A stretch of DNA of 53,025 nt from contig CAYPSN010000002.1 in NCBI GenBank assembly GCA_964413715.1, forward strand, positions 66,850 to 119,874. Direction: 5' to 3'. Source of the DNA: an uncultured Candidatus Saccharibacteria bacterium (GTDB lineage Bacteria; Patescibacteriota; Saccharimonadia; CAILAD01; JADZBC01). Made by a program: the position numbers and the translations under genes. Shown here piece after piece: positions 1 to 53,025 of this stretch; positions within the stretch are counted from its first letter, which is position 1, and the number at the start of each line of letters is the position of its first letter. The notes beneath the pieces are model-generated. The model did not search any database. It was not told the DNA's origin and saw only the letters and a program-made list of their open reading frames with translations.

Positions 1-156
1 GATTCACGTGCGATTGGGCCAGACCCTCCAAGTGGCAACGCGTAACGGCCCGTTGGTTCTCGAACCAAGCGACCGTTACGGCGAGTGTCTTCATGGCCGA
101 TGGGTGCTTACAGCGCACCGAGGAATGGTGTTGCGTGTGATGGGCATCGCCAACTA

Positions 157-203
157 GCCCACGAGAGAATCCTACGATTCATTCGTGGGCTTCTCTCATT
201 TTT
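157..203 (+). terminator. Intrinsic-terminator-like hairpin
   Basis: GCCCACGA (157-164) pairs with TCGTGGGC (183-190), with an inner GAATC/GATTC helix, followed by TTCTCTCATTTTT. Confidence 0.5.
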
Positions 204-204
204 A

Positions 205-245
205 TGTCAATAATACTTGACATTTTCCATTATTTATGATAGTAT
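205..245 (+). promoter_or_regulatory. Sigma70-type promoter embedded in a TGTCAA-N6-TTGACA inverted repeat
   Basis: TTGACA 217-222, 17-nt spacer, TAGTAT 240-245. Perfect inverted repeat TGTCAA (205-210) / TTGACA (217-222). AT-rich block abutting GC-rich DNA. Confidence 0.6.
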
Positions 246-307
246 TCTTCTGATCTTCGGAAAGCCCGAAGGTAGTAAGTTGAGAACAAGGAAAGGGGGT
301 GATACGG

Positions 308-517
308 ATGGCAGACTCGAAGAGCAAGGACCCGACCGTTTGGCTGGTCTCCTACTTCGTAGCGGCGATCATCACGATCGTGCTACTAGGAGCAGCGCTG
401 AACATGCTGATGGCTGCATTGCCGGTCACGGTGATGCTGATCATCATCGGCGTCCTGGCCTGGCTGTACATCCGCGAGCGTCGCAACTTCGCGGAGTACC
501 GGCGCAACCACCCGTAG
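308..517 (+). CDS. Small hydrophobic protein (69 aa), GC-rich cassette, no recognisable family
   Basis: ATG 308 preceded by AAGGAAAGGGGG. Two hydrophobic stretches (VWLVSYFVAAIITIVLLGAAL, LPVTVMLIIIGVLAWLYI). High GC3. Confidence 0.55.
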   Translation: MADSKSKDPTVWLVSYFVAAIITIVLLGAALNMLMAALPVTVMLIIIGVLAWLYIRERRNFAEYRRNHP

Positions 518-649
518 CGAACGCTACCCAACAGTCAGCCTCGGCTGACAGATTGGAGGCGCCTATGCGCTTTCGAGGGTTGTGCGAGTGATCGTGCAGC
601 CCTGCGGCTGGCCTGATTCGGCCAACCCACTGCCCTTTCCTTCTCAACC

Positions 650-700
650 CACGTCATCAAATGTGTATTTGATCTGAAGAGTTCAAAAGAACGAAACGTG
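650..700 (+). ncRNA. Type III hammerhead ribozyme (HH8)
   Basis: CACGU-C (cleavage predicted after C655), stem I AUCAAA-UGUGUA-UUUGAU, CUGAAGA, stem II GUUC-AAAA-GAAC, GAAA, CGUG. All invariant core positions present. Small hairpin UGGCC/GGCCA at 609-624. Confidence 0.8.
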
Positions 701-711
701 AAAAGAAGAAT

Positions 712-1281
712 CTAGAGAGACTCAATAAACTGCTTAAACTGCGTAAAGCCTGTATACGTGTACCCTTGCATGCCAGACTCTATCGCCCCATCTACATTGC
801 GCTGCCTGTCATCAACAAATAAGATTTCTTCGGCCGGTACAGATACCGACGAAAGTATCTGAGCATAAAAACCCGGCTGGGGCTTAATTACACCCATCTC
901 CGAAGACACAAACACATATTCGAATATGCCAGTAAAATGTTCTTTTTGCAGCAACTCACGCAGCAAATGTGCGCTGGCATTACTTGCAATATAGAGCTGG
1001 TACCGAGGGGCGAGTTGGTTTTTAATATAGCTAAACAACATAGGCTCAATTGGGCTCACGCCATGCTCTCTAGCCCGCAAGACCTCTGCGTCTACGTCAG
1101 CAATCTTGCTTACTTGCTCGTAATACTCATCATCGTTGGCGAGTTCGCCTATGTCTCGCTTACGAAATAACTCATGCAACTTAGCCTTCACGTCTGGCGA
1201 CAGATCGGACTCATTTACCCAATTATGACCATAGTCATCTAACAGCACCCCAAAGCAGTCGAAGGCAATGGCACGAATCAT
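712..1281 (-). CDS. HAD-superfamily hydrolase
   Basis: N-terminal IAFDCFGVL motif I and FVDDRQRNVDGA motif IV-like. 189 aa. 4-nt overlap with polA stop. Confidence 0.7.
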   Translation of the reverse strand: MIRAIAFDCFGVLLDDYGHNWVNESDLSPDVKAKLHELFRKRDIGELANDDEYYEQVSKIADVDAEVLRAREHGVSPIEPMLFSYIKNQLAPRYQLYIASNASAHLLRELLQKEHFTGIFEYVFVSSEMGVIKPQPGFYAQILSSVSVPAEEILFVDDRQRNVDGAIESGMQGYTYTGFTQFKQFIESL

Positions 1282-12367: not shown

Positions 12368-12739
12368 ATGGCATTACCCACCCCTCCTAAAGAAGCAATC
12401 TTTTACGAGGATAATTACGTTTATGCGTGCTTGGCTTCACATCCCCTAGCAGACGGCCACTCGGTAGTCGTTTGGAAGGAGCATAAACAAGACCTAAGCG
12501 AACTTAACAAAACTGAATATACGCACCTTATGAATGTCGTTGACCAAGTACGCAACGCCCTTATAAGCACCCTCGCTGTTGAGAAGGTGTATTTGATGTA
12601 CCTAGATGAGGTAAAGCATGTCCACTGGCACCTGATCCCAGCGCACAATCACGACGGCTTCAACGTGCTACAACACAAACCAGCCGAGCTTAAAGACTTT
12701 AGTATGGTTAAAGATATTTACGAGGAACTTAAGAAGTAG
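12368..12739 (+). CDS. HIT (histidine triad) family protein
   Basis: HVHWHLIP histidine triad. 123 aa. Confidence 0.85.
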   Translation: MALPTPPKEAIFYEDNYVYACLASHPLADGHSVVVWKEHKQDLSELNKTEYTHLMNVVDQVRNALISTLAVEKVYLMYLDEVKHVHWHLIPAHNHDGFNVLQHKPAELKDFSMVKDIYEELKK

Positions 12740-40155: not shown

Positions 40156-40162
40156 GTGTTTA

Positions 40163-40191
40163 AATATACTACATTTGTCAAAATTTGTCAA
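40163..40191 (-). promoter_or_regulatory. Promoter of TrmB paralog 1 (apparently leaderless)
   Basis: TTGACA (40191-40186), 17-nt spacer, TATATT (40168-40163), then 7 nt to ATG 40155. Second TGTCAA copy at 40176-40181. Confidence 0.55.
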
Positions 40192-40266
40192 CAATATATC
40201 AATTTAACCTGTACAAATACGTAATAATGTTGTAGAATAAGTTGTCTCTACCGAAAGGGGACTTCC

Positions 40267-40545: not shown

Positions 40546-40546
40546 G

Positions 40547-40580
40547 CTAGGCCGCACCCCATCCACGGGGTGCGGCCTAG
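40547..40580 (+). terminator. GC hairpin terminator
   Basis: CTAGGCCGCACCCC-ATCCAC-GGGGTGCGGCCTAG. Confidence 0.6.
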
Positions 40581-40588
40581 AATACTTT

Positions 40589-41989: not shown

Positions 41990-42004
41990 TCAAATCACTT
42001 AAAC

Positions 42005-42032
42005 TAAAAAACTCGAGTAATCTCGAGTTTTT
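42005..42032. terminator. Bidirectional intrinsic terminator
   Basis: AAAAAACTCGAG-TAAT-CTCGAGTTTTTT. Confidence 0.8.
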
Positions 42033-42036
42033 TAGT

Positions 42037-42126
<90 letters not shown>

Positions 42127-42156
42127 CGAACTGGTATAGTTTAGCCGAAAACCAGG

Positions 42157-42936
42157 TTATTTTCTAGACTTGCCGCTACCAGCGTTCGCGCTTGCAACTC
42201 CTGTTTTTACCAATGTAAAAATCTGCTTCATTGCCTCGGCTATCTGTGGGCTCTCTATAATCGTACCGATAACTTCTTCGCCGTATGAAATCAGTGCGGT
42301 TTTGTTGCCATACACATATAGGTTCACAGGCGCCGTAAAGGCTTCGCGCGGCGCCCAGGCCATGTCTCGGAGCATTGCTTTGTCATGTTCACGACCGTAG
42401 CGGATATTATCTTCTTCAGCCGGTTCTATACCGTGCGCTTTTATACCCAGTTTGGCCCGCTGCTCCATGTGCTTGTACAAATCTTTGCCCAACACGTTAA
42501 AGTCAGCATCCGAGCGGATAAAGTAAATGTCTTTACCCGTCCTACGCTGGTCTTCGTACATCTTTATAATCCCTTCTTTACCCTGGAAGAAGCGCACGCC
42601 AGGCTGATGCTGATAGGTGTAGAAGTAATTCAGTAGCTGCGGCATGCTGTCTCGCACCAGTTTTTCGGTAGCAAGAATCTCCTTACGTTTTTCTTCGATA
42701 AGTCGCTCTAAATTTGTGGGGTTGGCGGGATGATAACTCAGCTTTTTGCCAGATTCATCCTTCTCAACAAGACCTAGTGCGCACAACTTGTCGAGAATCA
42801 TATAACAATTTGTACGTGTTTCACCAATCTTTTCAGCCAACTCTGGGGGTGTTAAATCACCAAACTTTATAAGCGTAATATATGCTTTTGCCTGGCTTTT
42901 GGTTAAGCCTATTTGTTGTAAGAGTTCTGCATTCAT
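42157..42936 (-). CDS. TrmB-family transcriptional regulator (paralog 2)
   Basis: IGLTKSQAKAYITLIKFGDLTPPELAEKIGETRTNCYMILDKLCALGLV wHTH. 259 aa. Confidence 0.8.
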   Translation of the reverse strand: MNAELLQQIGLTKSQAKAYITLIKFGDLTPPELAEKIGETRTNCYMILDKLCALGLVEKDESGKKLSYHPANPTNLERLIEEKRKEILATEKLVRDSMPQLLNYFYTYQHQPGVRFFQGKEGIIKMYEDQRRTGKDIYFIRSDADFNVLGKDLYKHMEQRAKLGIKAHGIEPAEEDNIRYGREHDKAMLRDMAWAPREAFTAPVNLYVYGNKTALISYGEEVIGTIIESPQIAEAMKQIFTLVKTGVASANAGSGKSRK

Positions 42937-42942
42937 GCTTCA

Positions 42943-42984
42943 ATTCTACTCTCTATATTCATTTTTGTCAAGCGTATTTTGACA
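42943..42984 (-). promoter_or_regulatory. Promoter of TrmB paralog 2 (leaderless) within a TGTCAA-N7-TTGACA palindrome
   Basis: TTGACA (42971-42966), 17-nt spacer, TAGAAT (42948-42943), then 6 nt to ATG 42936. Palindrome spans 42966-42984. Confidence 0.6.
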
Positions 42985-43033
42985 TAAATGTGTTAATTTT
43001 CTATCTGTAAGGTAAGTATTTGTTTATTTTATA

Positions 43034-43062
43034 TTGACTATTTAATGCTTTTATTATATACT
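43034..43062 (+). promoter_or_regulatory. Strong sigma70 promoter of the hammerhead-punctuated operon
   Basis: TTGACT 43034-43039, 17-nt spacer, TATACT 43057-43062. GC content jumps immediately downstream. Confidence 0.65.
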
Positions 43063-43119
43063 TCCCCAGGCTCAAGCAACCCCGCTAGAGCCAGCACCTC
43101 GACACGCCTAGGAGGCGAC

Positions 43120-43272
43120 ATGCACGACGATCAAGAGTGGTTCGACAACCGGGACCTCCTCCCCCGCGGAATCATCCTCGGAGTGAGGCCGAAGCCCACG
43201 AACACGCAAAGCAACACGCTGAGCGACGCACTCGAAGACCTGCTGGAGCGGCGCTTCCTGCGCCGACTCTGA
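43120..43272 (+). CDS. Small hypothetical protein (50 aa), first ORF of the operon
   Basis: ATG 43120 follows GGAGG by 5 nt. Sequence MHDDQEWFDNRDLLPRG... Confidence 0.45.
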   Translation: MHDDQEWFDNRDLLPRGIILGVRPKPTNTQSNTLSDALEDLLERRFLRRL

Positions 43273-43316
43273 CGAGGCAACAAGGTAAACGGGGCGGTAC
43301 CTACAAACCCGCCCCC

Positions 43317-43373
43317 CTGACTCGGAGAGTAACGCGCTCTCCCTGACGATGACCGCGCACGGTCGAAAGTCAG
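43317..43373 (+). ncRNA. Type III hammerhead ribozyme (HH1) preceded by a hairpin
   Basis: CUGACU-C (cleavage after 43323), stem I GGAGAG-UAACGCG-CUCUCC, CUGACGA, one extra U, stem II GACCG-CGCA-CGGUC, GAAA, GUCAG. Hairpin GGGGCGG/CCGCCCC at 43291-43315. Confidence 0.8.
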
Positions 43374-43397
43374 CCGCACCTTGAACCAAGGAGAACA

Positions 43398-44003
43398 ATG
43401 AGCACCCCAGCCCTACTGAAAGTCGTCCTGACGGGCGGTCCCTGCGCCGGAAAGACCACGGTCTTCCGCCGCATCGAGCAAGAGTACGGACACCTGGTAA
43501 CGCTGGTGCCCGAAGTAGCCACCATGCTGCTCTCGAGCGGCTACCCCATGCCCGGACGCGACCTCGACTGGTCGCCCGGCTGGCGAGACAGCTTCCAGCG
43601 AGCCATCGCCACGGTCCAGGAAGAGGTAGAGGCGGCCTACGAAATGCGAGCTAAGGAGCGAGGTCACCGCCTCCTCCTGACCGACCGAGGCCTGATGGAC
43701 GGAGCGGCCTACTACGACAGCCGAGCTGAGTTCCTGAGCGCAACCGGAATCGACCATGGCACTGCCCTGGCTCGATACCAGGCGGTCATCCACCTCGAAT
43801 CCGTCGCCATCGCTCAGCCGGAGCTCTACTCGAAGGGCAACAACCCCTTCCGCTTCGAGACACTTGAGGAGGCCATCCCTCTCGAGGCCAAAACCCGAAG
43901 CGCTTGGGCTGGCCACCCACAGCACACCATCCTGGAGGGCGCCGACCTCGACTACAAGGTTAGCGGTACGCTCAGGGTGCTCGCGGCCTACCTGCAGGCA
44001 TGA
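43398..44003 (+). CDS. P-loop NTPase/kinase-like protein (AAA_28/NadR-kinase-like)
   Basis: Walker A GGPCAGKTT. Roughly 200-aa single-domain P-loop protein. RBS AAGGAG. Confidence 0.65.
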   Translation: MSTPALLKVVLTGGPCAGKTTVFRRIEQEYGHLVTLVPEVATMLLSSGYPMPGRDLDWSPGWRDSFQRAIATVQEEVEAAYEMRAKERGHRLLLTDRGLMDGAAYYDSRAEFLSATGIDHGTALARYQAVIHLESVAIAQPELYSKGNNPFRFETLEEAIPLEAKTRSAWAGHPQHTILEGADLDYKVSGTLRVLAAYLQA

Positions 44004-44041
44004 GCAGTGCAAGGTTCCGGGAGGTCCTTTAAAAACCTCCC

Positions 44042-44094
44042 CTGACTCGCGGAGTGAGTGCTCCGCCTGACGAGCCGGAAACGGCGAAAGTCAG
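44042..44094 (+). ncRNA. Type III hammerhead ribozyme (HH2) preceded by a hairpin
   Basis: CUGACU-C (cleavage after 44048), stem I GCGGAG-UGAGUG-CUCCGC, CUGACGA, stem II GCCG-GAAA-CGGC, GAAA, GUCAG. Hairpin GGGAGGU/ACCUCCC at 44019-44041. Confidence 0.85.
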
Positions 44095-44117
44095 TCCGCA
44101 CCTTGAAGGAGGCTTAC

Positions 44118-44696
44118 ATGCCCACTGAACCGAACAACCCTATCGACGAGATCTTCATCTCGGTCGATATCGAGTGCGACGGGGACATCCCCGGCGACTA
44201 CTCGATGCTCAGCATCGGGGCCACTACCCTCGGCAACAGGTACGATCGCGACTTCTACGTCGAACTCCGGCCCATGACCGAACGGTACAACCCCGACAGC
44301 CTGGCAGTAGCCAGCCTGGACCGCACTCGTCTGCTCCGCGAGGGAGTGCCAGCTCAGGTAGCGATGGCTCGGTTTGCAGCCTGGATCGAGGAAGTCCGCG
44401 GACTCCATGGAGACGCCAAAGCGGTGTGTGTCACTCTCAGCGAGTGGGATAACGGCTGGCTCTACTGGTACTTCGTCCACTTCCTGGGCCAAAAGCCCCT
44501 CGGCTTCACCGGCATCGACATCAAGAGCTACTTCATGGGCAAGCATGACCTGAAGGAGTTCGCGGGCACACCCCGAACCGAGATGCTGAAGCACTACCCG
44601 AGTGAGATCGAGCACACGCACAACGCGCTCGACGACGCCCGGGAGCAAGCCGAGATCTTCTGGGCAATGTACCGAGCCCAGCCTCCACAGGCCTAA
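44118..44696 (+). CDS. DEDDh 3'-5' exonuclease (DnaQ-like fold)
   Basis: ExoI SVDIECDG, ExoIII HNALDDAREQA. ATG 44118 after GAAGGAGG. Confidence 0.75.
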   Translation: MPTEPNNPIDEIFISVDIECDGDIPGDYSMLSIGATTLGNRYDRDFYVELRPMTERYNPDSLAVASLDRTRLLREGVPAQVAMARFAAWIEEVRGLHGDAKAVCVTLSEWDNGWLYWYFVHFLGQKPLGFTGIDIKSYFMGKHDLKEFAGTPRTEMLKHYPSEIEHTHNALDDAREQAEIFWAMYRAQPPQA

Positions 44697-44738
44697 GAGA
44701 CACAGAGGTAACCGGGGTGGTACCTACAAACCCGCCCC

Positions 44739-44791
44739 CTGACTCGCGGAGTGAGTGCTCCGCCTGACGAGCCGGAAACGGCGAAAGTCAG
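44739..44791 (+). ncRNA. Type III hammerhead ribozyme (HH3) preceded by a hairpin
   Basis: Ribozyme sequence identical to HH2 (cleavage after 44745). Hairpin GGGGUGG/CCGCCCC at 44714-44738. Confidence 0.85.
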
Positions 44792-44816
44792 TCCGCACCT
44801 TGAACTAAGGAGACCG

Positions 44817-45119
44817 ATGAGAATCGTTCGTCAAGGATCTATCCCGCCCGACCGCAACATCCAGCGAGGAACTTGCAGGCACTGCGGCACAGTGGTGGAA
44901 GCCAACATAACCACTGAGTGCAACCGGCGTACAACGACCAGGGACATTTACACTGATTATGACCCGGATGGACGACCGCCCTACTACTACAGCAAGACTG
45001 TCACGACCGAATACTTTGAGACGGGTTGTCCAGTCTGCTCAAGGCCAATCTGTGTATCCTCGAGGGAAATCTCGAGTACCCATCGGCCGGATGCACCAAA
45101 AGAAAAGTGGAGCATGTAG
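44817..45119 (+). CDS. Small zinc-ribbon-like protein (100 aa)
   Basis: CRHC...CPVC cysteine pairs. ATG 44817 after AAGGAG. Confidence 0.5.
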   Translation: MRIVRQGSIPPDRNIQRGTCRHCGTVVEANITTECNRRTTTRDIYTDYDPDGRPPYYYSKTVTTEYFETGCPVCSRPICVSSREISSTHRPDAPKEKWSM

Positions 45120-45161
45120 GTAGGCGCACAAGGTTCCGGGAGGTCCTTTCAAAACCTCCCC

Positions 45162-45216
45162 CGACTCGGAGAGTAATGCGCTCTCCCTGACGATGACCGC
45201 GCACGGTCGAAAGTCG
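45162..45216 (+). ncRNA. Type III hammerhead ribozyme (HH4) preceded by a hairpin
   Basis: CGACU-C (cleavage after 45167), stem I GGAGAG-UAAUGCG-CUCUCC, CUGACGA, extra U, stem II GACCG-CGCA-CGGUC, GAAA, GUCG. Hairpin GGGAGGU/ACCUCCC at 45138-45160. Confidence 0.8.
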
Positions 45217-45247
45217 GTATACTGTATAATCTACGAAAAGGAGTTGC

Positions 45248-45883
45248 ATGACCGCACAAGTTATTACCATCGATGGAGGCGCTGGCGTAGGTGGCAGCAC
45301 CACGGCCGAAGCACTAAGTAAGGCACTCGGCTGCGAACACCTCAACGTCGGTGAAATCTACCGCGCCCTCACCTTCGAACTGGTTAGCCTCGGCTGGACG
45401 AAGAAGCAGATTATGAGCTCACCCATGCTGGCGGCCGAGCTGGCGGCCGGATTCAAGCTACAGATTGCTAACGGCAGCGTGGCTAGCGTGAATGGTCAAG
45501 ATTGCCAAGGCAAGCTACACGCAGCAGAAATCAGCAAGCTGGTTCCGACTGTTGCGGCCATTCCCGAGATGCGAGCTACCGCCAAGAAGGTAGAGAAGAA
45601 CTTCATTGCAACTCGGCCACTCAGCATCATCGAGGGTCGAGCGGGCGCCTGGAGTATCCCGCAAGCAGTGCTAAAAATCTGGCTGCATTGCGATCCAGAA
45701 ATCGCCGCCAAGCGGCGCGGCTGCACCGTAGCAGAGATCCTGGAGCGCAACCTAGCGGATGCTACACGCGAGCACTCGCCTATGATCAAGCACCCAGATG
45801 CAGTCGCCATCGACACGGGCAAGCTACTCCCGGCCGAGATTGTGCAGCGCATCACGCAGCTCTACCGCGAACTGGCAGAATGA
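45248..45883 (+). CDS. Cytidylate kinase-like P-loop kinase
   Basis: ITIDGGAGVGGST...LNVGEIYRAL resembles the Cmk N-terminus (IDGPxxxGKST...DTGxxYRA). P-loop Lys replaced (GVGGST). TATAAT at 45225-45230 upstream. Confidence 0.6.
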   Translation: MTAQVITIDGGAGVGGSTTAEALSKALGCEHLNVGEIYRALTFELVSLGWTKKQIMSSPMLAAELAAGFKLQIANGSVASVNGQDCQGKLHAAEISKLVPTVAAIPEMRATAKKVEKNFIATRPLSIIEGRAGAWSIPQAVLKIWLHCDPEIAAKRRGCTVAEILERNLADATREHSPMIKHPDAVAIDTGKLLPAEIVQRITQLYRELAE

Positions 45884-45927
45884 CGCGGACAGCTAGGTTC
45901 CTGGGGAGTCCTACCAAAACTCTCCCC

Positions 45928-45977
45928 CGATTCAGCAGATTATGTCTGCTCTGATGAGCCAAGCATGGCGAAAATCG
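45928..45977 (+). ncRNA. Type III hammerhead ribozyme (HH5) preceded by a hairpin
   Basis: CGAUU-C (cleavage after 45933), stem I AGCAGA-UUAUG-UCUGCU, CUGAUGA, stem II GCCA-AGCA-UGGC, GAAA, AUCG. Hairpin GGGGAGU/ACUCUCC at 45903-45925. Confidence 0.85.
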
Positions 45978-45995
45978 GTTATAGTTAGGAGAATA

Positions 45996-46520
45996 ATGAA
46001 CGAAGTTATCGAAATTGAACGCAAGTGGGTCCTCGATGGGCTACCTGAGGGGATCGTTCCGATAAAAAGCCATGAAATCGAACAGGCATACCTAGATGTT
46101 CGTGGTCTACGTTTGCGTAAAAAAGATGAGGGATACTTAATAACCTACAAGAGCAAGGGCGACTTAGCCCGCAGTGAGTGGGAGCAAGAGATTCCCGCTT
46201 GGACTTATGATGGGCTCAAAGCAGAAGCACGTGCGGTACTTCATAAAACTCGTCACGTCTACAATGGCGGCGAGGTGGCCCTAGAGCTCGATGAATACCA
46301 TGGCGAACTCGAAGGACTCTACACAATCGAAGCCGAATGGGCACTGGAAATCCCTAGCACACTCACCCTGAAAGCAAGACAAGAGCTGATTCAAGATGCC
46401 GAGAAGGCTGCCAAAAGCTACATTCTGCCCTATCAGTTCTCTAACGCTCACGAGGTCACAGGCCTTAAAGCTTATAGCAACCGCTCATTGGCAGTTCACG
46501 GCCTACCGAAGCCTAACTAA
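45996..46520 (+). CDS. CYTH-domain (triphosphate tunnel metalloenzyme) protein
   Basis: N-terminal EIERKW signature. ATG 45996 after AGGAGA. Backbone-like GC. Confidence 0.75.
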   Translation: MNEVIEIERKWVLDGLPEGIVPIKSHEIEQAYLDVRGLRLRKKDEGYLITYKSKGDLARSEWEQEIPAWTYDGLKAEARAVLHKTRHVYNGGEVALELDEYHGELEGLYTIEAEWALEIPSTLTLKARQELIQDAEKAAKSYILPYQFSNAHEVTGLKAYSNRSLAVHGLPKPN

Positions 46521-47569
46521 CCAAGTTCCTTCTTGAACTTCTCGACTAGTTCAACTGGAGCAGGGTCGATCTCGTTTAAAATGCCCATATATGCCGAAAC
46601 GTAGTCACCGAGCATAATTGTGCTAAGTAGCTGCTGAATGTGTGTGTTTCCTACTACTTCTACTTCGACAGGCTCGTAGCCGTGCTTAGCCAGCACTTGG
46701 CGCGTCACAACAAATCGTTTTTTTATACGTTCGCCATCGAGACTAGAATGAAGTTCCACCACCTGAGCATGCTTGTTTTCAGGAAACAGCCAACCTTGCA
46801 TTTCGTTATGATTCAGCTCAGGAAATACATTAGCGCTCGCCATTTGCTTGGCGTTTTCGTTAATATCAATCTTCCATTTATACGCCGCCGATGCCAACGT
46901 GGGGCCAGCATATATAATAGCGCCTTTGCCATGCAGTTGCTTAGCAATCTTTCGCGCCACAGAATCATCTGGTGCATCTAGATTCCACTGGGCCTTTTGT
47001 GTATCCAAATAGTCTGCTACATTTTGCAGCTCACGGCGCATGTCAACTTTGGAAGTTAAGCCAAGGTTTTCTAAAATGCATATTAACGCCTTAATGTCGG
47101 CGAAGACTCCTAGTCGAGGCTGAGAATAATGCTCGAGTTCAATATCTAAAAGCACTCTGTTTTTGGCCGACTTTTCGAGCAAGCCTCCACTCGACATAGT
47201 AATCACTTGTGAGTTATTGCGCTGTGCATCCTTTAGGCAACTTAGCGCCTCTTCTGTGTTACCTGAAGCGCTCGAAACTATTACAAGAGTTCGGTCATTC
47301 ACATAACCTGGCAAGCTATAGCCACGCACGACTTCAAGAGGAACAAGTAACTGCTCATTCAGCCAATTCTTCACAATCATGCCAGCCAAAGCTGAGCCGC
47401 CCATACCGGCAAAAATTATGTTGTGCACGCCTAATCCAAGCTCGGTACTGAGTTTGCCTCGCATGCTGTCAGCAAAGTTCAGTCGTAACTGTGCCGGTTG
47501 TGCGTCAATCGCATCGAAGATGTGGTGTTTGTCATATTTAGCTCGTTCGTCAGCCTTTACCATAACCAT
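46517..47569 (-). CDS. Bifunctional phosphoglucose/phosphomannose isomerase family (SIS domain)
   Basis: FAGMGGSALAG, VIVSSASGNTEE SIS motifs. Start moved to MVMVKADE (47569). Confidence 0.75.
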   Translation of the reverse strand: MVMVKADERAKYDKHHIFDAIDAQPAQLRLNFADSMRGKLSTELGLGVHNIIFAGMGGSALAGMIVKNWLNEQLLVPLEVVRGYSLPGYVNDRTLVIVSSASGNTEEALSCLKDAQRNNSQVITMSSGGLLEKSAKNRVLLDIELEHYSQPRLGVFADIKALICILENLGLTSKVDMRRELQNVADYLDTQKAQWNLDAPDDSVARKIAKQLHGKGAIIYAGPTLASAAYKWKIDINENAKQMASANVFPELNHNEMQGWLFPENKHAQVVELHSSLDGERIKKRFVVTRQVLAKHGYEPVEVEVVGNTHIQQLLSTIMLGDYVSAYMGILNEIDPAPVELVEKFKKELG

Positions 47570-47619
47570 ATTATACACGGTGTGTTTACTCCTGTCCGCC
47601 GTCAGATTATAATAAGTCA

Positions 47620-48480
47620 ATGAGCCCCGGCAGACCAGAAACTCAACCAAGAAACGAAACTCCTGACGCCAAGATGCAGGGCAGTGAGAAGATAGACCTT
47701 CTTCCTGGGCTAGAGGAACAAAGTCCAGAGGAGTTTGAATGGGCTGTGAGCGACTATTTTAAGGACGTGCAATCGGCAAGACAGCGTGCTATTGAAGAAA
47801 GACACCCAAACCCTTCTGCCGCTGCTAAAGAATTCGTATATAAAAAACATGTAGAGGGTGCTGAGTTCAAAGAACTAGGCAAGCTCTGTGAGATCCTTTT
47901 TCTTGCCCCCCTGGCAGCCGACATACAAGAACGCCTTGACCCTATCAATGATGAGTTAAGTAACCTAAATAACCGATATAGAGACAGAGAAAGTCGACCA
48001 CCAGAAGTTCAGCTCAGGATTGCAGAGCTTAAAAAGCTAAAGAAGCCATTATTAGATAGCATGATGCCCTTCAATCATTTACTTCGCGACTTTGTGATTG
48101 ATAACGGCGACCACATTTCTCACGAAAACCTTGAGAATTGGCTGAGTAAAGCAAATAACAATGTCCCCGGACCATTTAAGAAAATTTTATCTGGGTTCGC
48201 CGTGGAAGCAGCCTGTAACAGGTTTGTCATGCAAGGACTTGCGGGCGAAGATATCGCGTGTCGCAAAAGTACTATCGAAGAAGACAAGGCAGGTATTGAT
48301 ATGGTTATTATCTACCAAGGAAGAGAGATCAATGTAGATGTTAAGACTGGCGGCAATATTGCGGACGGACTAGGAAAAGTTAGCGAGCTAGACATCGAGA
48401 GAAATGAAGTAAGTGGTTTTGACATAAGCCCAAACGCGAGGATTGCTATAGCTAGACGTATACGTAATATGTTGACATAA
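47620..48480 (+). CDS. Hypothetical protein with a possible PD-(D/E)xK-like C-terminal motif
   Basis: 286-aa ORF (alternative start M19 at 47674). GIDMVIIYQGREINVDVK resembles D...(D/E)xK. Confidence 0.5.
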   Translation: MSPGRPETQPRNETPDAKMQGSEKIDLLPGLEEQSPEEFEWAVSDYFKDVQSARQRAIEERHPNPSAAAKEFVYKKHVEGAEFKELGKLCEILFLAPLAADIQERLDPINDELSNLNNRYRDRESRPPEVQLRIAELKKLKKPLLDSMMPFNHLLRDFVIDNGDHISHENLENWLSKANNNVPGPFKKILSGFAVEAACNRFVMQGLAGEDIACRKSTIEEDKAGIDMVIIYQGREINVDVKTGGNIADGLGKVSELDIERNEVSGFDISPNARIAIARRIRNMLT

Positions 48481-48500
48481 ATTAACAAAAGTGCTATTAT
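48472..48500 (+). promoter_or_regulatory. Sigma70 promoter overlapping the end of the upstream gene
   Basis: TTGACA 48472-48477, 17-nt spacer, TATTAT 48495-48500. Confidence 0.55.
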
Positions 48501-48527
48501 ATACTCTCATCAACCGAGGAGGTGAAG

Positions 48528-48689
48528 ATGAGCGACCGACGAGCTTGTGAGATGATCTCCGAGCACACCGTCAGTCATCCCCCGCACACAGCAGAAGCTC
48601 GCGCTGTCGTAATTGCACATATCGCTGCCTGCGATACCTGCAAGAACAAGTACGGAGCGGCAATCGCCGCATGGGACAACAACAACTGA
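48528..48689 (+). CDS. GC-rich 53-aa Cys/His-containing peptide
   Basis: Not in the ORF track (under 60 aa). ATG 48528 after GAGGAGG. Sequence MSDRRACEMISEHTVSHPPH...CDTCKNKY. Followed by 11-bp hairpin 48688-48721. Confidence 0.45.
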   Translation: MSDRRACEMISEHTVSHPPHTAEARAVVIAHIAACDTCKNKYGAAIAAWDNNN

Positions 48690-48737
48690 GGCTCCATGGA
48701 TCGCAAGGTTCATGGAGCCTCTGCTCGTTCATATAAG

Positions 48738-48764
48738 AAAAGGCCGAGTTAATCTCGGCCTTTT
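48738..48764. terminator. Bidirectional intrinsic terminator (also serves groEL)
   Basis: AAAAGGCCGAG-TTAAT-CTCGGCCTTTT. Confidence 0.8.
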
Positions 48765-48785
48765 CTTATCTAGAAGTAAGCGTGC

Positions 48786-50728
<1,943 letters not shown>

Positions 50729-50772
50729 TTCTACCTCCTTGTTAATTACACACAATTACTCTTTAGTAAGCA

Positions 50773-50799
50773 TTAGCACTCTAATGCTCTGAGTGCTAA
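50773..50799 (-). promoter_or_regulatory. CIRCE operator (HrcA binding site)
   Basis: Perfect TTAGCACTC-N9-GAGTGCTAA upstream of groES. Confidence 0.9.
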
Positions 50800-50854
50800 A
50801 CCTAGTGTACAAAAATCCCCCATTGAGCGTCAAGACCCAATTGATGGGCGTTTC

Positions 50855-50894
50855 TGTAATGAAAAGCCCGTCCCTAGATGTTAGGGACGGGCTT
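50855..50894 (-). terminator. Intrinsic terminator overlapping the stop of the SLOG-like gene
   Basis: AAGCCCGTCCCT-N7-AGGGACGGGCTT (50864-50894), followed on the minus strand by UUUUCAUUAC. Confidence 0.7.
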
Positions 50895-51356
50895 GTTGAG
50901 TACCGCCAACCAGTTGATGAGGATCTGCGACAGACGGCGCTCGGCCACTTTGCCAATGCCCGGGCTGCTGCTTTCACGACTACCTGCCACATTGAGTGTT
51001 AGGATGTCGTTCTCCACCAGCCAGCCTACCACCTCAACCGGGTCGCACTTGTGGAGCAGGTTCACTACGAGACACGGCTTGCCCTGTTCGTTGGCCACGT
51101 TACGAGTCAGCTTTGAGCCACCGCGCAGCGAACCACGAACAAGGATCAGCGTACCGTCGGACTCACACACATTCCTGCGTGTGCGCTGCCGGTAGCCCGA
51201 ACTCGGAGTCTCTTTGACAGAGTATTTGTCCGAAATCTGACCACGCTCGTTGTAGCGTCCCTTCGGCACCCAGCCGCCCGTTGGTATGCCCAGCTTGATG
51301 GCTGCATCCAGAGCCGCTTTGTCTACGCCGGTTTGAGCACCGCTAACGATCTTCAC
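50874..51356 (-). CDS. YpsA/'MoCo-carrier'-type SLOG-family protein
   Basis: IVSGAQTGVDKAALDAAIKLGIPTGGWVPKGR signature. GTG 51356 after AAGGGAGG. Overlaps the upstream ORF end by 14 nt. Confidence 0.65.
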   Translation of the reverse strand: MKIVSGAQTGVDKAALDAAIKLGIPTGGWVPKGRYNERGQISDKYSVKETPSSGYRQRTRRNVCESDGTLILVRGSLRGGSKLTRNVANEQGKPCLVVNLLHKCDPVEVVGWLVENDILTLNVAGSRESSSPGIGKVAERRLSQILINWLAVLNKPVPNI

Positions 51357-51939
51357 GGCGCCTCCCTTTGTAGAGCTGCATGTCGCCATCCTGGCCCAGC
51401 ACGTAGACTGGCAGCCCATCGTAGAACAACGAGGCCTTGGCCAACCCGACAATTACGTCGGGGTCGGGGTAGATTCTCGACCACCGAGTCGCCCTATTCT
51501 CAAGGACGAGTGGCCAGAACTCTCCCCAGTAGGCTTCCCCCTGATCCTCTTCCGCCAGCTCTTCCTCGAGCGGGTCTACGGACATGTCGTCCAAGCCTGA
51601 AAGTGCTTCGACATCGCAGTCGAACCCGGTGACACCACCTTCTTCGGCAATTCGCATCCTCAGATCGAAGAGCTCCGGGTCGTCGCCAACTACGACGGCG
51701 TAGACACGGCCTGCACCGCTCTGGATTCGTGAATCCAGGCGGCCGAACCACACACCGAACATGTCGAGCCACGACATGACACAGGCCTCGTGCGGCGCCA
51801 CCAGCTCGATGCCCTCCCCGCCGTGATCGACCGCGGGCAGAGTGACGACGGTTGGGCGCCGTTCCCGCAACTTCGCGCACAGAAACGCGAACTTCTTGAC
51901 TGGTACGTTGCCAATGACGACGATGATGTCGCGCATCAT
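51343..51939 (-). CDS. GC-rich hypothetical protein (about 198 aa)
   Basis: Start at tandem ATG ATG (51939 or 51936) after AAAGGAGGA. No motif recognised. Confidence 0.5.
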   Translation of the reverse strand: MMRDIIVVIGNVPVKKFAFLCAKLRERRPTVVTLPAVDHGGEGIELVAPHEACVMSWLDMFGVWFGRLDSRIQSGAGRVYAVVVGDDPELFDLRMRIAEEGGVTGFDCDVEALSGLDDMSVDPLEEELAEEDQGEAYWGEFWPLVLENRATRWSRIYPDPDVIVGLAKASLFYDGLPVYVLGQDGDMQLYKGRRREDR

Positions 51940-51987
51940 TCCTCCTTTGTAAAGAGCGTGAATTGGGCCTTCCAACTCAACGTGCAG

Positions 51988-52016
51988 ATTATACAAACTT
52001 TATGTATTTTTGTCAA
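51988..52016 (-). promoter_or_regulatory. Perfect-consensus sigma70 promoter for the GC-rich two-gene operon
   Basis: TTGACA (52016-52011), 17-nt spacer, TATAAT (51993-51988). Confidence 0.65.
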
Positions 52017-52052
52017 TAATATTTGTATAATTTGAAGATTTATGCTTTATTT

Positions 52053-52093
52053 TGTCAATATCTATTTTGACAAACGCTGGAATGTGCTACAAT
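52053..52093 (+). promoter_or_regulatory. Promoter of TrmB paralog 3 within a TGTCAA-N8-TTGACA palindrome
   Basis: Palindrome 52053-52072. TTGACA 52067-52072, extended -10 TGcTACAAT 52085-52093, then 6 nt to ATG 52100 (leaderless). Confidence 0.55.
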
Positions 52094-52099
52094 ATGGAT

Positions 52100-52837
52100 A
52101 TGGAAAATACCCTACACGAACTCGGCCTGTCAAAATCTCAGGCTCGCGCCTATATGATACTTATTGATAACGGAAGACTCGACCCTCTTTCGTTGGCCAA
52201 AAAAACTGGCGAGGCTAGAACGAACGCTTATATGATTATGGAGCGGCTAGCGGACTTGGGGCTTGCTGTGCGCGACGAAGTGAAGAAGAAGCGAATCTAT
52301 CGCCCATCAAGCCCGTTGGGACTCCAAAGATTGGCTGAAAGACAGAGAGCGAAAGCGCATGAGCAAGAAAGAAAAATTAAGCAAGCCATGCCAGATCTTC
52401 TCCGCTATTTTCATGAAAAGTACAGCCAACCTAGTGTTAGGTTTTTACAGGGCCATGATGGAATCAACCAAATTTACAAGGATCATTTGGCGCAAGATGG
52501 AGATATTTATGTATTTCGCACCCAAGAAGATTACAAGTACTACGGTGATGACCTAAATAGCTATTTGGAAGATAAGGCAAGAAAAGGAATAAAAACCGAA
52601 ATTATATCACCTCAATCCAAAATTGCGCTGCAAAACTTTAAAAACAACCCACTTGGACGAGAATTCACATGGGTACCAGAAGAAAGCTATACGGCTCCTG
52701 TCGAGATATCTATATATGGTAATAAAGCAGCCTTCACGTCATTTGGCGAGGAAGCAGTCGCTCTAATAGTGGAAAGTCCCCAAATCGCAAAAGCATTACG
52801 CGAGATTTTTCTTCTGGTTAAAACAAGGGGTATATAG
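52100..52837 (+). CDS. TrmB-family transcriptional regulator (paralog 3)
   Basis: LGLSKSQARAYMILIDNGRLDPLSLAKKTGEARTNAYMIMERLADLGLA wHTH. Start moved to MENTLHEL (52100). Confidence 0.8.
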   Translation: MENTLHELGLSKSQARAYMILIDNGRLDPLSLAKKTGEARTNAYMIMERLADLGLAVRDEVKKKRIYRPSSPLGLQRLAERQRAKAHEQERKIKQAMPDLLRYFHEKYSQPSVRFLQGHDGINQIYKDHLAQDGDIYVFRTQEDYKYYGDDLNSYLEDKARKGIKTEIISPQSKIALQNFKNNPLGREFTWVPEESYTAPVEISIYGNKAAFTSFGEEAVALIVESPQIAKALREIFLLVKTRGI

Positions 52838-52851
52838 CTAAATAGTGTGAT

Positions 52852-52904
52852 GCAACTTTCGTCCTTTTGGACTCATCAGAATAACCCGACAGTTATTGAG
52901 TTGC
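52852..52904 (-). ncRNA. Type III hammerhead ribozyme (HH7) preceded by a UUCG-capped hairpin
   Basis: Minus strand: GCAACU-C (C at 52898), stem I AAUAAC-UGUCGG-GUUAUU, CUGAUGA, stem II GUCC-AAAA-GGAC, GAAA, GUUGC. A 10-bp hairpin CACCCCGGGC-UUCG-GCCUGGGGUG at 52905-52928 lies immediately 5' on that strand. Confidence 0.8.
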
Positions 52905-53025
52905 CACCCCAGGCCGAAGCCCGGGGTGAGGAGTTTATGTGGCTTACTCCTGTGCCTGCGTAGCTGGGGTAGCTACTTGTTGTGTTGCGGCTTAGTTGCC
53001 GCTGCTGTCCACGATGACGGGGGTC

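Follow-up and report, generated by a model that had tools for sequence, protein, structure and literature searches.

What might eight hammerhead ribozymes be doing within 53 kb of a bacterial chromosome? The window, by which we mean the whole analysed stretch of 53,025 nt, belongs to the chromosome of a Candidatus Saccharibacteria bacterium (CPR) and is not a prophage; no phage genes lie nearby. A sequence-only reading had placed eight type III hammerheads here. A strict structural descriptor (CUGANGA, stem II, GAAA, an A15.1-U16.1 pair plus three or more further pairs in stem III, stem I, and any nucleotide but G at position 17), run on both strands, finds exactly eight complete copies at those places and returns no match in 200 dinucleotide-preserving shuffles of the window. 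The copies are:

650-700, plus strand: HH8, predicted cut 655/656; descriptor and model R1 (62.9 bits)
37516-37568, minus strand: HH6, predicted cut 37562/37561; descriptor, RF00008 and lineage model
43317-43373, plus strand: HH1, predicted cut 43323/43324; descriptor and lineage model
44042-44094, plus strand: HH2, predicted cut 44048/44049; descriptor, RF00008 and lineage model
44739-44791, plus strand: HH3, predicted cut 44745/44746; descriptor, RF00008 and lineage model
45161-45217, plus strand: HH4, predicted cut 45167/45168; descriptor and lineage model
45927-45978, plus strand: HH5, predicted cut 45933/45934; descriptor and lineage model
52852-52904, minus strand: HH7, predicted cut 52898/52897; descriptor, RF00008 and lineage model

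The cleavage-site nucleotide is C in all eight, as had been read from the letters; at N7, HH1-4 have C, HH5-7 have U and HH8 has A. The stem II sequences listed at that time (GCCG/CGGC, GACCG/CGGUC, GCCA/UGGC, GUCG/CGAC, GUCC/GGAC and GUUC/GAAC) match those found, and the GC-rich and AT-rich versions then described correspond to a G+C of 0.38 (HH8) to 0.64 (HH2 and HH3, which are identical in sequence). In HH1 and HH4 one more U is inserted next to the core, between A9 and G10.1, and stem III of HH4 (CCGACU/AGUCGG) covaries with respect to that of HH1.

With the Rfam model RF00008, HH6 reaches 43.9 bits (E=2e-6), HH2 and HH3 reach 39.6 bits (E=4e-5) and HH7 reaches 23.7 bits (E=1.2); no match with E≤10 is returned for HH1, HH4, HH5 or HH8, and none of the eight attains the curated cut-off of 48.5. 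The lineage covariance model R1, which was built from 14 hammerheads of the lineage with HH1 and HH4 left out of the seed, was run over the whole window with filters off and returns the same eight loci at 36.6-74.1 bits, against a best noise match of 9.4 bits. On this sequence evidence, we regard the eight loci as confirmed, genuine type III hammerheads. The 10 kb on either side of the window add no further copy, giving eight in ~73 kb; an IS1595 transposase lies ~3 kb outside the window.

The motif is restricted to one lineage. Scanned with the descriptor, the GroEL loci of other bacteria (904 kb) give no match, and no hammerhead was found in ~1.5 Mb of loci from other phyla. Across 80 loci (733 kb) with the same exonuclease family as the operon described below, R1 detects hammerheads in two only, both from Saccharibacteria. 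A pattern search of 185,579 species genomes gave eight matches, every one in a Saccharibacteria/Patescibacteria MAG, and the array-type pattern was not found in IMG/VR.

The accessory operon and its spacer modules

Five hammerheads (HH1-5) fill every intergenic spacer of a GC-rich six-gene operon. This operon is a present/absent accessory island beside tRNA-Ser, and is absent from the related loci L005 and L007. The region comprises:

42041-42127: tRNA-Ser, adjoining the island
42157-42936, minus strand: TrmB-family regulator (Pfam PF01978, E=6e-13), divergent from the hammerhead operon and part of the island
43034-43062, plus strand: promoter-like site TTGACT-17-TATACT in an AT-rich spacer, the region being conserved in L004
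43120-43272, plus strand: ORF1, 50 aa, called as a gene in the source assembly; no family match
43398-44003, plus strand: ORF2, AAA_28 P-loop protein (Pfam PF13521, E=6e-21)
44118-44696, plus strand: ORF3, DEDD 3'-5' exonuclease (weak Pfam matches to RNase_T and Rv2179c-like; PADLOC PDLC00753 'Effector, Exonuclease', E=2e-46)
44817-45119, plus strand: ORF4, 100 aa, Zn-ribbon protein with two CxxC pairs in its sequence; no family match
45248-45883, plus strand: ORF5, cytidylate kinase (Pfam PF02224, E=1e-30; TIGR00017 below its cut-off)
45996-46520, plus strand: ORF6, CYTH-domain protein (Pfam PF01928, E=8e-9), G+C backbone-like

The spacers share one order of parts: stop codon, 7-10 nt, H-type pseudoknot, hammerhead, conserved GCACCU, Shine-Dalgarno (SD) sequence and start codon. 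On the 3' side of HH1, for example, GCACCU and the SD precede the start of ORF2. The distance from stop codon to hammerhead is ~27-50 nt in intergenic modules, and that from hammerhead to start codon is 17-30 nt where a gene with an SD lies downstream. GCACCU is restricted to modules with an SD and a gene downstream; in predicted folds its CCU tends to pair with the SD, which misfits simple insulation. The pseudoknot consists of a GC stem of 7 bp, a 4-6 bp helix in which the 5' flank pairs with the hairpin loop, and a third loop rich in A:

43283-43315, plus strand: pseudoknot 1, S1 AGGUA/UACCU, S2 GGGGCGG/CCGCCCC, A-rich third loop; 1 nt 5' of HH1
44011-44041, plus strand: pseudoknot 2, S1 AAGG/CCUU, S2 GGGAGGU/ACCUCCC; abuts HH2
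44706-44738, plus strand: pseudoknot 3, S1 AGGUA/UACCU, S2 GGGGUGG/CCGCCCC; abuts HH3
45130-45160, plus strand: pseudoknot 4, S1 AAGG/CCUU, S2 GGGAGGU/ACCUCCC; abuts HH4
45894-45925, plus strand: pseudoknot 5, S1 UAGG/CCUA (covarying variant), S2 GGGGAGU/ACUCUCC; 1 nt 5' of HH5

Of 24 modules, 22 contain a pseudoknot, whose helices occur in 9 covarying variants, and the observed complementarity was matched by none of 1000 loop shuffles and none of 1000 between-module swaps. Each operon hammerhead is joined to a covarying H-type pseudoknot abutting stem III, which is new here. The attached pseudoknots and hairpins, like the proposed function of the ribozymes, formed no part of the earlier claims and were added by the present analysis.

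HH1-6 and five modules of relatives all show pairing between the core and the 3' strand of stem III in the predicted folds of their 3' cleavage products, with nucleotide 1 as the first paired nucleotide. This core re-pairing is absent from the predicted 3' products of HH7 and HH8, both of which lack a downstream gene. That the freed stem III strand would re-pair with the catalytic core after cleavage is a prediction from these folds, and is likewise new here.

Three further loci and conservation in relatives

The features that accompany HH8, HH6 and HH7 are:

about 215-243, plus strand: sigma70-like promoter of the 299-517 gene
299-517, plus strand: small membrane-protein gene, 69-72 aa with hydrophobic stretches, from the sequence and the ORF list of L176 (same region, another sample)
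37570-37601, minus strand: 12-bp hairpin directly next to the 5' strand of stem III of HH6 in predicted folds
37570-38740, minus strand: putative GC-rich transcript of about 1.15 kb ending at HH6
38768-38740, minus strand: promoter TTGACA-17-TATAGT of the HH6 transcript
52905-52928, minus strand: 10-bp hairpin with UUCG loop, abutting HH7 stem III in predicted folds

HH8 lies in a 3' UTR, about 130 nt past the small membrane-protein gene, and a convergent HAD gene ends 12 nt beyond it. HH6 is flanked upstream by a structured non-coding RNA and downstream by a 77-82 aa ORF and tmRNA. Compared with L006, the 37570-38740 region has 81-84% DNA identity, indels of 3, 1, 1, 1, 8 and 1 nt and double changes that preserve hairpins. 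The last 340 nt of this transcript therefore behave as structured non-coding RNA; the transcript has no Rfam match. The hairpin adjoining HH6 shows a compensatory change in L006, from CUC/GAG to CCC/GGG. HH7 sits just past the 3' end of a Band_7/SPFH gene that extends beyond the window and is seen in L002 and L178, and its adjoining hairpin changes in a compensatory manner in L005 (CCGGGC/GCCUGG to CCGAGC/GCUCGG).

Orthologous hammerheads are present across L004-L008. In relatives at 84-85% GroEL identity they occupy the same syntenic places and carry compensatory changes: stem II of HH7 goes from GUCC/GGAC to GCUC/GAGC in L006, that of HH6 from GUCG/CGAC to GUCA/UGAC (L006 orthologue at 11998-12050) and an HH2-like stem II from GCCG/CGGC to GCUC/GAGC in L004. 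HH5 has an orthologue at L004 7877-7928, and HH1 an identical copy in L006. Identity of the IG1 module reaches 97-98% across 101 nt between genomes that share 72-78% identity in core genes and have cargo genes that cannot be aligned. In an alignment of 31 distinct sequences, fitted to the model and with many members related by descent, 99.0% of stem cells are paired (31-42% with slid partners), 14 of 17 stem pairs vary on both sides, and the covariation score is 0.813 against 0.224±0.018 in shuffles. These observations bear out the suggestion that function, rather than recent duplication, keeps the stems paired. In L004, L005, L006 and L007 the HH7 orthologues have groES on one side and the upstream gene on the other (Band_7 in the source contig); two of these loci, L005 and L007, lack the GC-rich island. 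The idea that the hammerheads are part of the organism's own toolkit is supported. HH8 recurs only in near-identical contigs of other samples, and no divergent orthologue was found.

A candidate role in RNA punctuation

Our favoured explanation, held with moderate confidence, is that the eight are functional cis-acting type III hammerheads encoded by the chromosome, most likely serving as RNA punctuation. Most probably they would cut the transcript, while it is being made, into individual mRNAs protected at both the 3' and the 5' end. Each ribozyme would cut after C17 during transcription, leaving a 2',3'-cyclic phosphate on the upstream RNA and a 5'-OH on the downstream RNA. The upstream mRNA would end in the pseudoknot plus about 7-8 nt, and the pseudoknot should stop exonucleases that degrade RNA 3'-to-5'. 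On the downstream mRNA, the 3' strand of stem III, once freed, would re-pair with the core CUGAY, which we propose makes the cut effectively irreversible. This RNA would then carry a 5'-OH and be folded into two hairpins from nucleotide 1 onwards, a structured end that should be a poor entry for 5'-end-dependent RNases. Each mRNA would then stand alone, its stability and translation insulated from those of its neighbours. HH7 and HH8 may play the same role at the 3' ends of single genes facing convergent genes or the groESL promoter region, setting the 3' end behind a hairpin, and HH6 would trim the 3' end of the structured non-coding RNA, parting it from the small ORF and tmRNA. We infer that cleavage takes place in vivo, that the flanking structures protect the RNA ends and that expression is affected; the locus is an unusually clean natural case for learning what bacterial hammerheads do.

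Could the modules be conditional switches instead of constitutive cutters? The pseudoknot, the core-to-stem III helix and GCACCU would then jointly decide cutting and translation of the next cistron, coupling downstream expression to upstream translation or to a pseudoknot-binding ligand or protein. The pseudoknot begins 7-10 nt past the upstream stop, in reach of a terminating ribosome, and resembles small ligand-binding pseudoknots in general shape, but the spacers match no known riboswitch or other Rfam family and no candidate ligand or protein was identified. Minimum free energy folds of uncut spacers often favour the inactive core-to-stem III pairing, so that cleavage could be slow or conditional; the alternative helix is, however, equally explicable as the post-cleavage fold. 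Stems I and II vary freely while stem III holds to CYGAYU/ARUCRG, as expected if its 3' strand must pair with the invariant core. The confinement of GCACCU to modules with an SD and a gene, and a predicted probability of the SD being unpaired that ranges from 0.29 to 0.76 along the operon, would also suit a switch, but the gap between GCACCU and SD is often too short for a hairpin. We consider such switching unlikely as the main role.

A different reading takes the modules as gene-cassette joints, either homology anchors for cargo swaps or boundaries of RNAs that are excised, circularised and possibly copied back in a retrozyme-like manner. Between TrmB and PGI the window has six genes, L004 ~four, L006 and L008 ~two, and L005 and L007 none. 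The modules are 88-98% identical among relatives, whereas AAA_28 is only 41% and CYTH only 50% identical. The spacers combine two pseudoknot types with three ribozyme bodies in mosaic fashion, HH2 and HH3 form direct repeats around ORF3 (with a similar pair in L089), and the stem III halves are compatible among all array hammerheads. However, small coiled-coil proteins, the exonuclease, AAA_28 and CYTH recur as a set, and in much the same order, in divergent genomes; this favours a conserved operon over free cassettes. Purifying selection on compact structured RNA would also yield high module identity, the tRNA region adjoining the island being 91-96% identical between genomes. Moreover, no integrase, reverse transcriptase or RtcB gene is among the window genes scanned, the variable genes do not adjoin HH7 or HH8, and circular or spliced products of clustered hammerheads were sought and not found by Perreault et al. 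(PMC3088659). We therefore view cassette joints as improbable. As for chance matches or decaying, functionless relics of a repeat or selfish element, every copy falls under the Rfam gathering threshold, and copies with a core change (CCGAUGA, L006 12501-12554) and with a stem III mismatch (L089 6121-6176) indicate that some decay does occur. Against this stand the match-free shuffles, the clean score gap of the lineage model and the two-sided compensatory changes at orthologous positions, which together refute a chance origin, as well as the fixed placement relative to stop and start codons and a module conservation above that of neighbouring protein-coding genes; we give this explanation very little credence.

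Comparison with known systems

Clusters of hammerheads have been on record in bacteria since 2011, in Clostridium scindens, Azorhizobium caulinodans and a triple arrangement in Agrobacterium tumefaciens (PMC3088659). Clusters flanking genes cleave in vitro, one triple arrangement cleaves in E. coli, and Perreault et al. (2011, PMC3088659) suggested that the transcripts are thereby processed to gene-length mRNAs. Our copies share with these clusters several hammerheads in one transcription unit flanking single genes or short blocks, the proposed cutting of a long transcript into gene-length mRNAs, and gene identities that vary between genomes. In contrast to those prophage clusters, they are chromosomal in a CPR bacterium, occupy every spacer of a six-gene operon, five in a row, also lie behind core-genome genes, and are each joined to a conserved pseudoknot or hairpin, undescribed for the earlier cases.

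Members of RF00008 (viroid, satellite and retrozyme-type) have the same core, three-helix topology with open stem III, C17 cleavage and short stem II with a 4-nt loop. The Saccharibacteria copies differ in scoring under the family's curated cut-off, in the U between A9 and G10.1 of two copies, in a stem III constrained in sequence to complement the core, and in being single copies in bacterial mRNA spacers rather than parts of circular RNA replicons or retroelements. Retrozymes and viroid-like circular RNAs likewise have a unit between direct repeats of type III hammerheads that are identical or compatible (here HH2/HH3 around ORF3), but the units here are ordinary SD-bearing protein-coding cistrons in a bacterial chromosome, and we saw no sign that they form circular RNA, are reverse-transcribed or are dispersed in multiple copies.

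Closest in proposed working are RiboJ and other ribozyme insulators of its kind. RiboJ combines a satellite-RNA hammerhead with a 3' hairpin. This engineered insulator raises downstream gene expression (PMC6206723). In both, a hammerhead just 5' of the SD would remove upstream RNA and leave a structured 5'-OH leader, making downstream expression independent of upstream context. RiboJ is synthetic and used after promoters, whereas the natural module lies between cistrons and at 3' ends, and its added 5' pseudoknot would protect the upstream product.

Bacterial mRNAs are stabilised by 3'-terminal stem-loops or pseudoknots and by 5'-terminal hairpins such as that of the ompA leader. The flanking structures and the refolded ribozyme are similarly proposed to block exonucleases and 5'-end-dependent RNases; here, however, it is a ribozyme, and not termination or a protein RNase, that would make the ends.

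Eight type III hammerheads and their covariation

The sequence-only reading had placed eight type III hammerheads in the window. We searched both strands with a descriptor that combines CUGANGA, a stem II with a 3-11 nt loop, GAAA, a stem I hairpin, a non-G residue at position 17 and a stem III in which the A15.1-U16.1 pair is extended to at least 4 pairs, perfect pairing being demanded. Exactly eight matches were obtained, at the same eight loci, while 200 dinucleotide-preserving shuffles of the window gave none.

Hammerheads recovered by the descriptor (position in the window, strand, name)
650-700, +, HH8
37516-37568, -, HH6
43317-43373, +, HH1
44042-44094, +, HH2
44739-44791, +, HH3
45161-45217, +, HH4
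45927-45978, +, HH5
52852-52904, -, HH7

The descriptor also bore out the cleavage-site C, the C, U or A at N7 and all the stem II sequences listed earlier. HH2 and HH3 are identical in sequence. Loops I and II, whose tertiary contact is needed for activity at physiological Mg2+, are short: loop II is mostly GAAA or AAAA, and loop I mostly begins with G after a closing U-G pair. The type III core has been defined as C3 U4 G5 A6 N7 G8 A9 ... G12 A13 A14 with the A15.1-U16.1 pair and H17 at the cleavage site (PMC3088659), and in the descriptor search all eight elements agree with it. Each has three helices around the core, with stems I and II closed, stem III open and no core-adjacent mispair. 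In HH1 and HH4 one U is inserted next to the core, between A9 and G10.1. In a viroid hammerhead, an extra residue between A9 and G10.1 is tolerated. We found no statement on such an insertion in PMC3088659, and because of the extra U, HH1 and HH4 are variants under its strict criteria.

A covariance-model scan with Rfam RF00008 reported four of the eight loci, namely HH6 at 43.9 bits (E=2e-6), HH2 and HH3 at 39.6 bits each (E=4e-5) and HH7 at 23.7 bits (E=1.2), and missed HH1, HH4, HH5 and HH8. None reached the gathering threshold of 48.5 bits, which is a curated database cut-off and not a biochemical criterion. Taken alone, this outcome is ambiguous by the covariance-model test that the sequence-only reading had proposed for itself, and we therefore built a lineage model, R1, from 14 hammerheads of Saccharibacteria, with HH1 and HH4 outside the seed. 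Run over the whole window with filters off, R1 returned the same eight loci at 36.6-74.1 bits, far above the next match at 9.4 bits, so that on this model the proposal holds. The 10 kb flanking the window on each side (source contig and a second sample) contained no additional hammerhead. By sequence and structure the eight elements are type III hammerheads, though not by Rfam's curated score, and we predict them to be active.

Applied to all Saccharibacteria loci, R1 gave 37 matches, 31 of them distinct. Among the latter, standard pairs occupy 99.0% of cells (98-100% per helix), compared with 31-42% when the partners are slid by 1-3 columns, and 14 of 17 pairs have changed on both sides. Covariation scores 0.813, as against 0.224±0.018 for shuffles and about 0.1 with slid partners. 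Although the sequences are related by descent and were aligned by fitting to R1, the margin is very large. It agrees with the changes seen orthologue by orthologue. In the close relative L006, stem II of HH7 changes from GUCC/GGAC to GCUC/GAGC and that of HH6 from GUCG/CGAC to GUCA/UGAC, both compensatory; the HH7 orthologue of L005 has one additional stem III pair, and an HH2-like copy in L004 has GCUC/GAGC as stem II. Several orthologous hammerheads are independently reported by Rfam.

Chromosomal setting and placement

The window comes from a metagenomic contig of 89 kb, and the GroEL encoded in it shares 84-85% identity with the GroEL of several Candidatus Saccharibacteria/Saccharimonadia MAGs. 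Its genes are chromosomal (PolA, RpoD, DnaG, Mur ligase, Dus, LytR, MgsA, PGI, GroES/EL, tmRNA, tRNA-Ser). A prophage or viral origin was rejected, since no phage genes or prophage signature were found in the window and the array-type pattern had no match in IMG/VR. On L178, a contig that reaches beyond the right end of the window, an IS1595-family transposase, a Replic_Relax protein, a PadR regulator and a C39-like peptidase (12871-16598, 3-6 kb past the window end) sit just beyond the Band_7 gene; they may be the remnant of a mobile element and contain no hammerheads.

In 337 kb of Saccharibacteria loci the descriptor found nine hammerheads, all from the four closest relatives; the GroEL loci of 55 other bacteria, 904 kb in all, gave no match. 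The operon-type sequence pattern had eight matches in 185,579 species-representative genomes, every one in a Saccharibacteria/Patescibacteria MAG, and four in JGI metagenomes. Of 80 loci (733 kb, many phyla) with the exonuclease family of the operon's ORF3, only two, both from Saccharibacteria, have hammerheads. The ribozymes are thus a trait of a Saccharibacteria clade and not of the gene family or of phages.

Five of the eight hammerheads belong to one operon of six genes, where they occupy all five spacers.

Order of the operon (43045-46520, +)
ORF1 (50 aa)
HH1
AAA_28
HH2
DEDD exonuclease (ORF3, 44118-44696, +)
HH3
Zn-ribbon-like ORF4
HH4
cytidylate kinase
HH5
CYTH

A TrmB-family regulator is divergent from the operon, and the two together lie between PGI and tRNA-Ser. 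This unit is missing in the close relatives L005 and L007, where PGI adjoins the tRNA, and is therefore an accessory island. L004 has an array of a lipoprotein-like ORF, an 80-aa Cys-rich ORF, AAA_28 (41% identical) and CYTH (50% identical) with three hammerheads between them, whereas L006 and L008 retain one hammerhead flanked by two ORFs. In more distant Saccharibacteria, L089, L094 and L096 have four hammerheads each, and the arrays of these loci and of L091 repeatedly carry small coiled-coil proteins, an exonuclease, AAA_28 and CYTH, with a second P-loop protein as occasional cargo. The array cargo is not random. The ORF3 exonuclease matches PADLOC PDLC00753 'Effector, Exonuclease' (E=2e-46), which together with the variability of the cargo hints at a defence or accessory role. 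CYTH and AAA_28 are its conserved partners, divergence among close relatives is strong, and the operon might be a defence or nucleotide-signalling system.

The exonuclease family is widespread (Bacteroidota, Verrucomicrobiota, Planctomycetota, archaea), and the closest relatives of ORF3 are in other Saccharibacteria, followed by Thermoplasmata, Planctomycetota, Chloroflexi and Bacteroidota. Nothing among them points to Actinobacteria, and an origin of the GC-rich cargo from actinobacterial hosts was accordingly rejected. Nor are hammerheads a general feature of GC-rich genes, as the isolated ones at 12893-13429 and 50874-51996 are without a ribozyme. Four isolated genes, 12893-13429 (+), 22899-23498 (-), 36092-36448 (-) and 51343-51996 (-), have a GC3 of 0.72-0.86 versus about 0.45-0.55 for the genome, and a Pfam search of the four gave no convincing match. 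Native-looking AT-rich sigma70 promoters and ordinary terminators accompany 12893-13429 and 51996-50874. The product of 36092-36448 is lipoprotein-like, and its homologue (37% identical) is the first array gene in L004 and L008. Three TrmB-family paralogues, 24-44% identical, are encoded at 39394-40194 (-), 42157-42936 (-) and 52052-52837 (+); each adjoins a GC-rich unit that some close relatives have and others lack, and the unit of TrmB, 51343-51996 and a cpYpsA-like gene is absent from L004-L007.

Outside the operon, HH7 lies directly 3' of the end of the Band_7 gene. Its orthologue in L004-L007 is found on the same strand between the orthologous upstream gene and groES; in the window, a second TrmB and GC-rich unit is inserted between HH7 and groES. 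HH8 lies about 130 nt past a gene that has its own promoter and a product of 69-72 aa with hydrophobic stretches; a convergent HAD gene ends 12 nt beyond HH8. HH6 is the end of a GC-rich transcript of about 1.15 kb with the promoter TTGACA-17-TATAGT (37570-38768, -), a stretch with no convincing ORF. The first 132 nt and last 340 nt of this transcript are 81-84% identical to L006, which has 374 nt in place of the middle 700 nt. Over the last 340 nt the differences are mostly non-triplet indels and hairpin-preserving double substitutions, which suggests a structured non-coding RNA. An Rfam search of the RNA upstream of HH6 gave no match; 37570-38768 (-) looks like an unclassified structured RNA.

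A small ORF and tmRNA lie 3' of HH6 in the window and are absent at that place in L006, which does have the HH6 orthologue; a functional link between HH6 and tmRNA was rejected on this ground. The tmRNA and the 77-82 aa ORF directly upstream of it (36798-37421, -) are inside a variable GC-rich stretch. The L006 counterpart (12143-12320 region), without tmRNA and ORF, has a second hammerhead instead, with the core change CCGAUGA (12501-12554). The roughly 350 nt 3' of the tmRNA (36449-36797) appear highly structured. A second candidate non-coding RNA of about 450 nt, GC-rich and partly conserved in L008, is found at 38890-39381 (-), with the promoter TTGACA-17-TATCAT, an extended -10 TG and a clear intrinsic terminator at 38913-38894. 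Across 35900-53025, promoter-like sites are enriched (28 versus 12.6±3.5 in shuffles) and terminator-like sites are not (18 versus 16.7±3.4). The genome may have few intrinsic terminators, as would be expected if ribozymes form 3' ends.

Attached structures and the proposed mechanism

In seven of the eight hammerheads a stable hairpin abuts the 5' strand of stem III; the exception is HH8, where the closest one is about 20 nt upstream. The hairpins of HH6 and HH7 show compensatory changes in orthologues. In the operon-type modules the attached element is a predicted H-type pseudoknot, whose helix S1 pairs a motif 5' of the hairpin (mostly AAGG) with the start of the hairpin loop (CCUU). S1 covaries (AGGUA/UACCU, UAGG/CCUA, CAGGU/ACCUG, AAAGG/CCUUU, CAAG/CUUG, CGGGGU/ACCUCG, GAGGC/GCCUC, UGAGGC/GCCUCA); the first loop is 3-5 nt, the stem 7 bp and GC-rich, and the third loop A-rich, (U/C)CAAA(A). 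Because loop lengths vary, a MAFFT alignment is out of structural register, and the pseudoknot was assessed module by module with controls. It fits 22 of 24 modules, and the observed complementarity was reached by 0 of 1000 loop shuffles and 0 of 1000 between-module flank swaps. An outer helix suggested by MFE folds (CAAGGU before the hairpin with ACCUUG after the ribozyme) was rejected, as swaps match its complementarity in 168 of 1000 cases; the 5' CAAGGU motif pairs with the hairpin loop rather than with ACCUUG.

A conserved GCACCU stands 1-5 nt 3' of the hammerhead, in the window and also in relatives, but solely in modules that are followed by an SD and a gene. The motif is similar to the anti-SD end of 16S rRNA, and its partial pairing with the SD is predicted.

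GCACCU in the window
43376-43381, +
44098-44103, +
44795-44800, +

The spacing of the modules is regular, with about 27-50 nt from stop codon to hammerhead and 17-30 nt from hammerhead to start codon. For the first operon spacer module (IG1), identity over 101 nt is 97-98% in genomes that share 72-78% DNA identity in their core genes and have unalignable cargo genes. When the 3' products are folded in silico, the stem III 3' strand released by the predicted cut is paired with the core CUGAY in HH1-6 and in five relatives' modules, and the refolded product has two adjacent hairpins from nucleotide 1. This refolding is absent from the predicted folds of HH7 and HH8, which have no downstream gene. 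Operon-type copies keep CYGAYU/ARUCRG in stem III while stems I and II vary freely, a retention that would be explained by the re-pairing of the 3' strand with the core.

From motif, covariation, placement and accessory structures we infer cleavage in vivo and protection of the resulting ends. Constitutive cis-cleaving ribozymes would punctuate transcripts, splitting cistrons or trimming a 3' UTR or a non-coding RNA. The new 3' end would be guarded by the pseudoknot or hairpin and a tail of about 7-8 nt with a cyclic phosphate, and the new 5' end by the refolded ribozyme body and a 5'-OH, so that re-ligation is prevented. Every cistron would then have its own stability and an SD context independent of upstream sequence. 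We consider this explanation as a whole probable.

Could cleavage or translation instead be conditional, controlled by the pseudoknot, a competing helix and the anti-SD-like GCACCU? MFE folds of uncut spacers contain the same core-stem III pairing, so that it may also serve as an inactive, competing fold, and an Rfam search of the spacers at E<=10 returned only RF00008 matches and no known pseudoknot riboswitch (e.g. preQ1 classes). We hold such control to be rather unlikely. The motifs might also be relics or products of chance; all of them fall below the RF00008 threshold, but the shuffled windows are empty and the stems covary, and we give this reading hardly any credence.

An unlikely alternative in our judgement is that the modules are cassette joints for recombination or RNA circularisation. 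A scan of window genes turned up no reverse transcriptase. The ends of released cistrons could be joined by the reverse ribozyme reaction or an RtcB-type ligase into circular, exonuclease-proof mRNAs, perhaps exchangeable cassettes, and would come together because the stem III halves of the array are compatible and HH2 equals HH3. If true, this reading would add a bacterial, protein-coding equivalent to the retrozymes and explain why the cargo varies between joints that are conserved; we regard it as quite improbable.

Significance and comparison with known systems

To our knowledge, the processing of polycistronic transcripts by hammerheads has been suggested and never established. Thousands of hammerheads are present in bacterial and phage DNA, and a 2019 review lists their function as unresolved (PMC6765202). 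This lineage is a clean test case, with ribozymes in every operon spacer and behind core genes, in a fixed position with respect to stop and start codons. The accessory structures yield specific, falsifiable predictions: the 3' pseudoknot should stabilise the upstream mRNA, and the core-complementary stem III should make the cut final and fold into a hairpin at the 5' end; the anti-SD-like GCACCU is a third conserved feature. The range of hammerheads is extended to the Candidate Phyla Radiation, whose members have very small genomes; there, an RNA-only processing device may replace protein RNases or terminators. In the limited literature searched, we found no paper combining 'hammerhead ribozyme' and 'Saccharibacteria', no earlier description of a fused pseudoknot or core-complementary stem III, and no earlier use of a hammerhead behind core genes and non-coding RNA.

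The array has a direct repeat of a hammerhead (HH2 and HH3), and in retrozymes and viroid-like circular RNAs such repeats bound a unit that is excised and circularised. The units of the array are single-copy protein-coding cistrons, unlike the non-coding, multi-copy units of those RNAs, which a reverse transcriptase mobilises. Integron cassettes are promoterless and bounded by attC recombination sites, with an IntI integrase; here a TrmB regulator and no integrase adjoins the array, ribozyme modules form the junctions, and similar gene orders recur. Clustered prophage hammerheads cleave in vitro, and one cluster does so in E. coli; Perreault et al. proposed that they punctuate transcripts (PMC3088659). 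As in those clusters, several hammerheads flank individual genes of one transcription unit, here in five spacers, whereas the context here is chromosomal and CPR, with PolA, RpoD, DnaG, GroEL/ES, PGI and tmRNA as neighbours. The engineered insulator RiboJ works in the way proposed here, freeing the SD context from upstream sequence (PMC6206723); the module is a natural analogue of such ribozyme insulators and might itself be a useful part.
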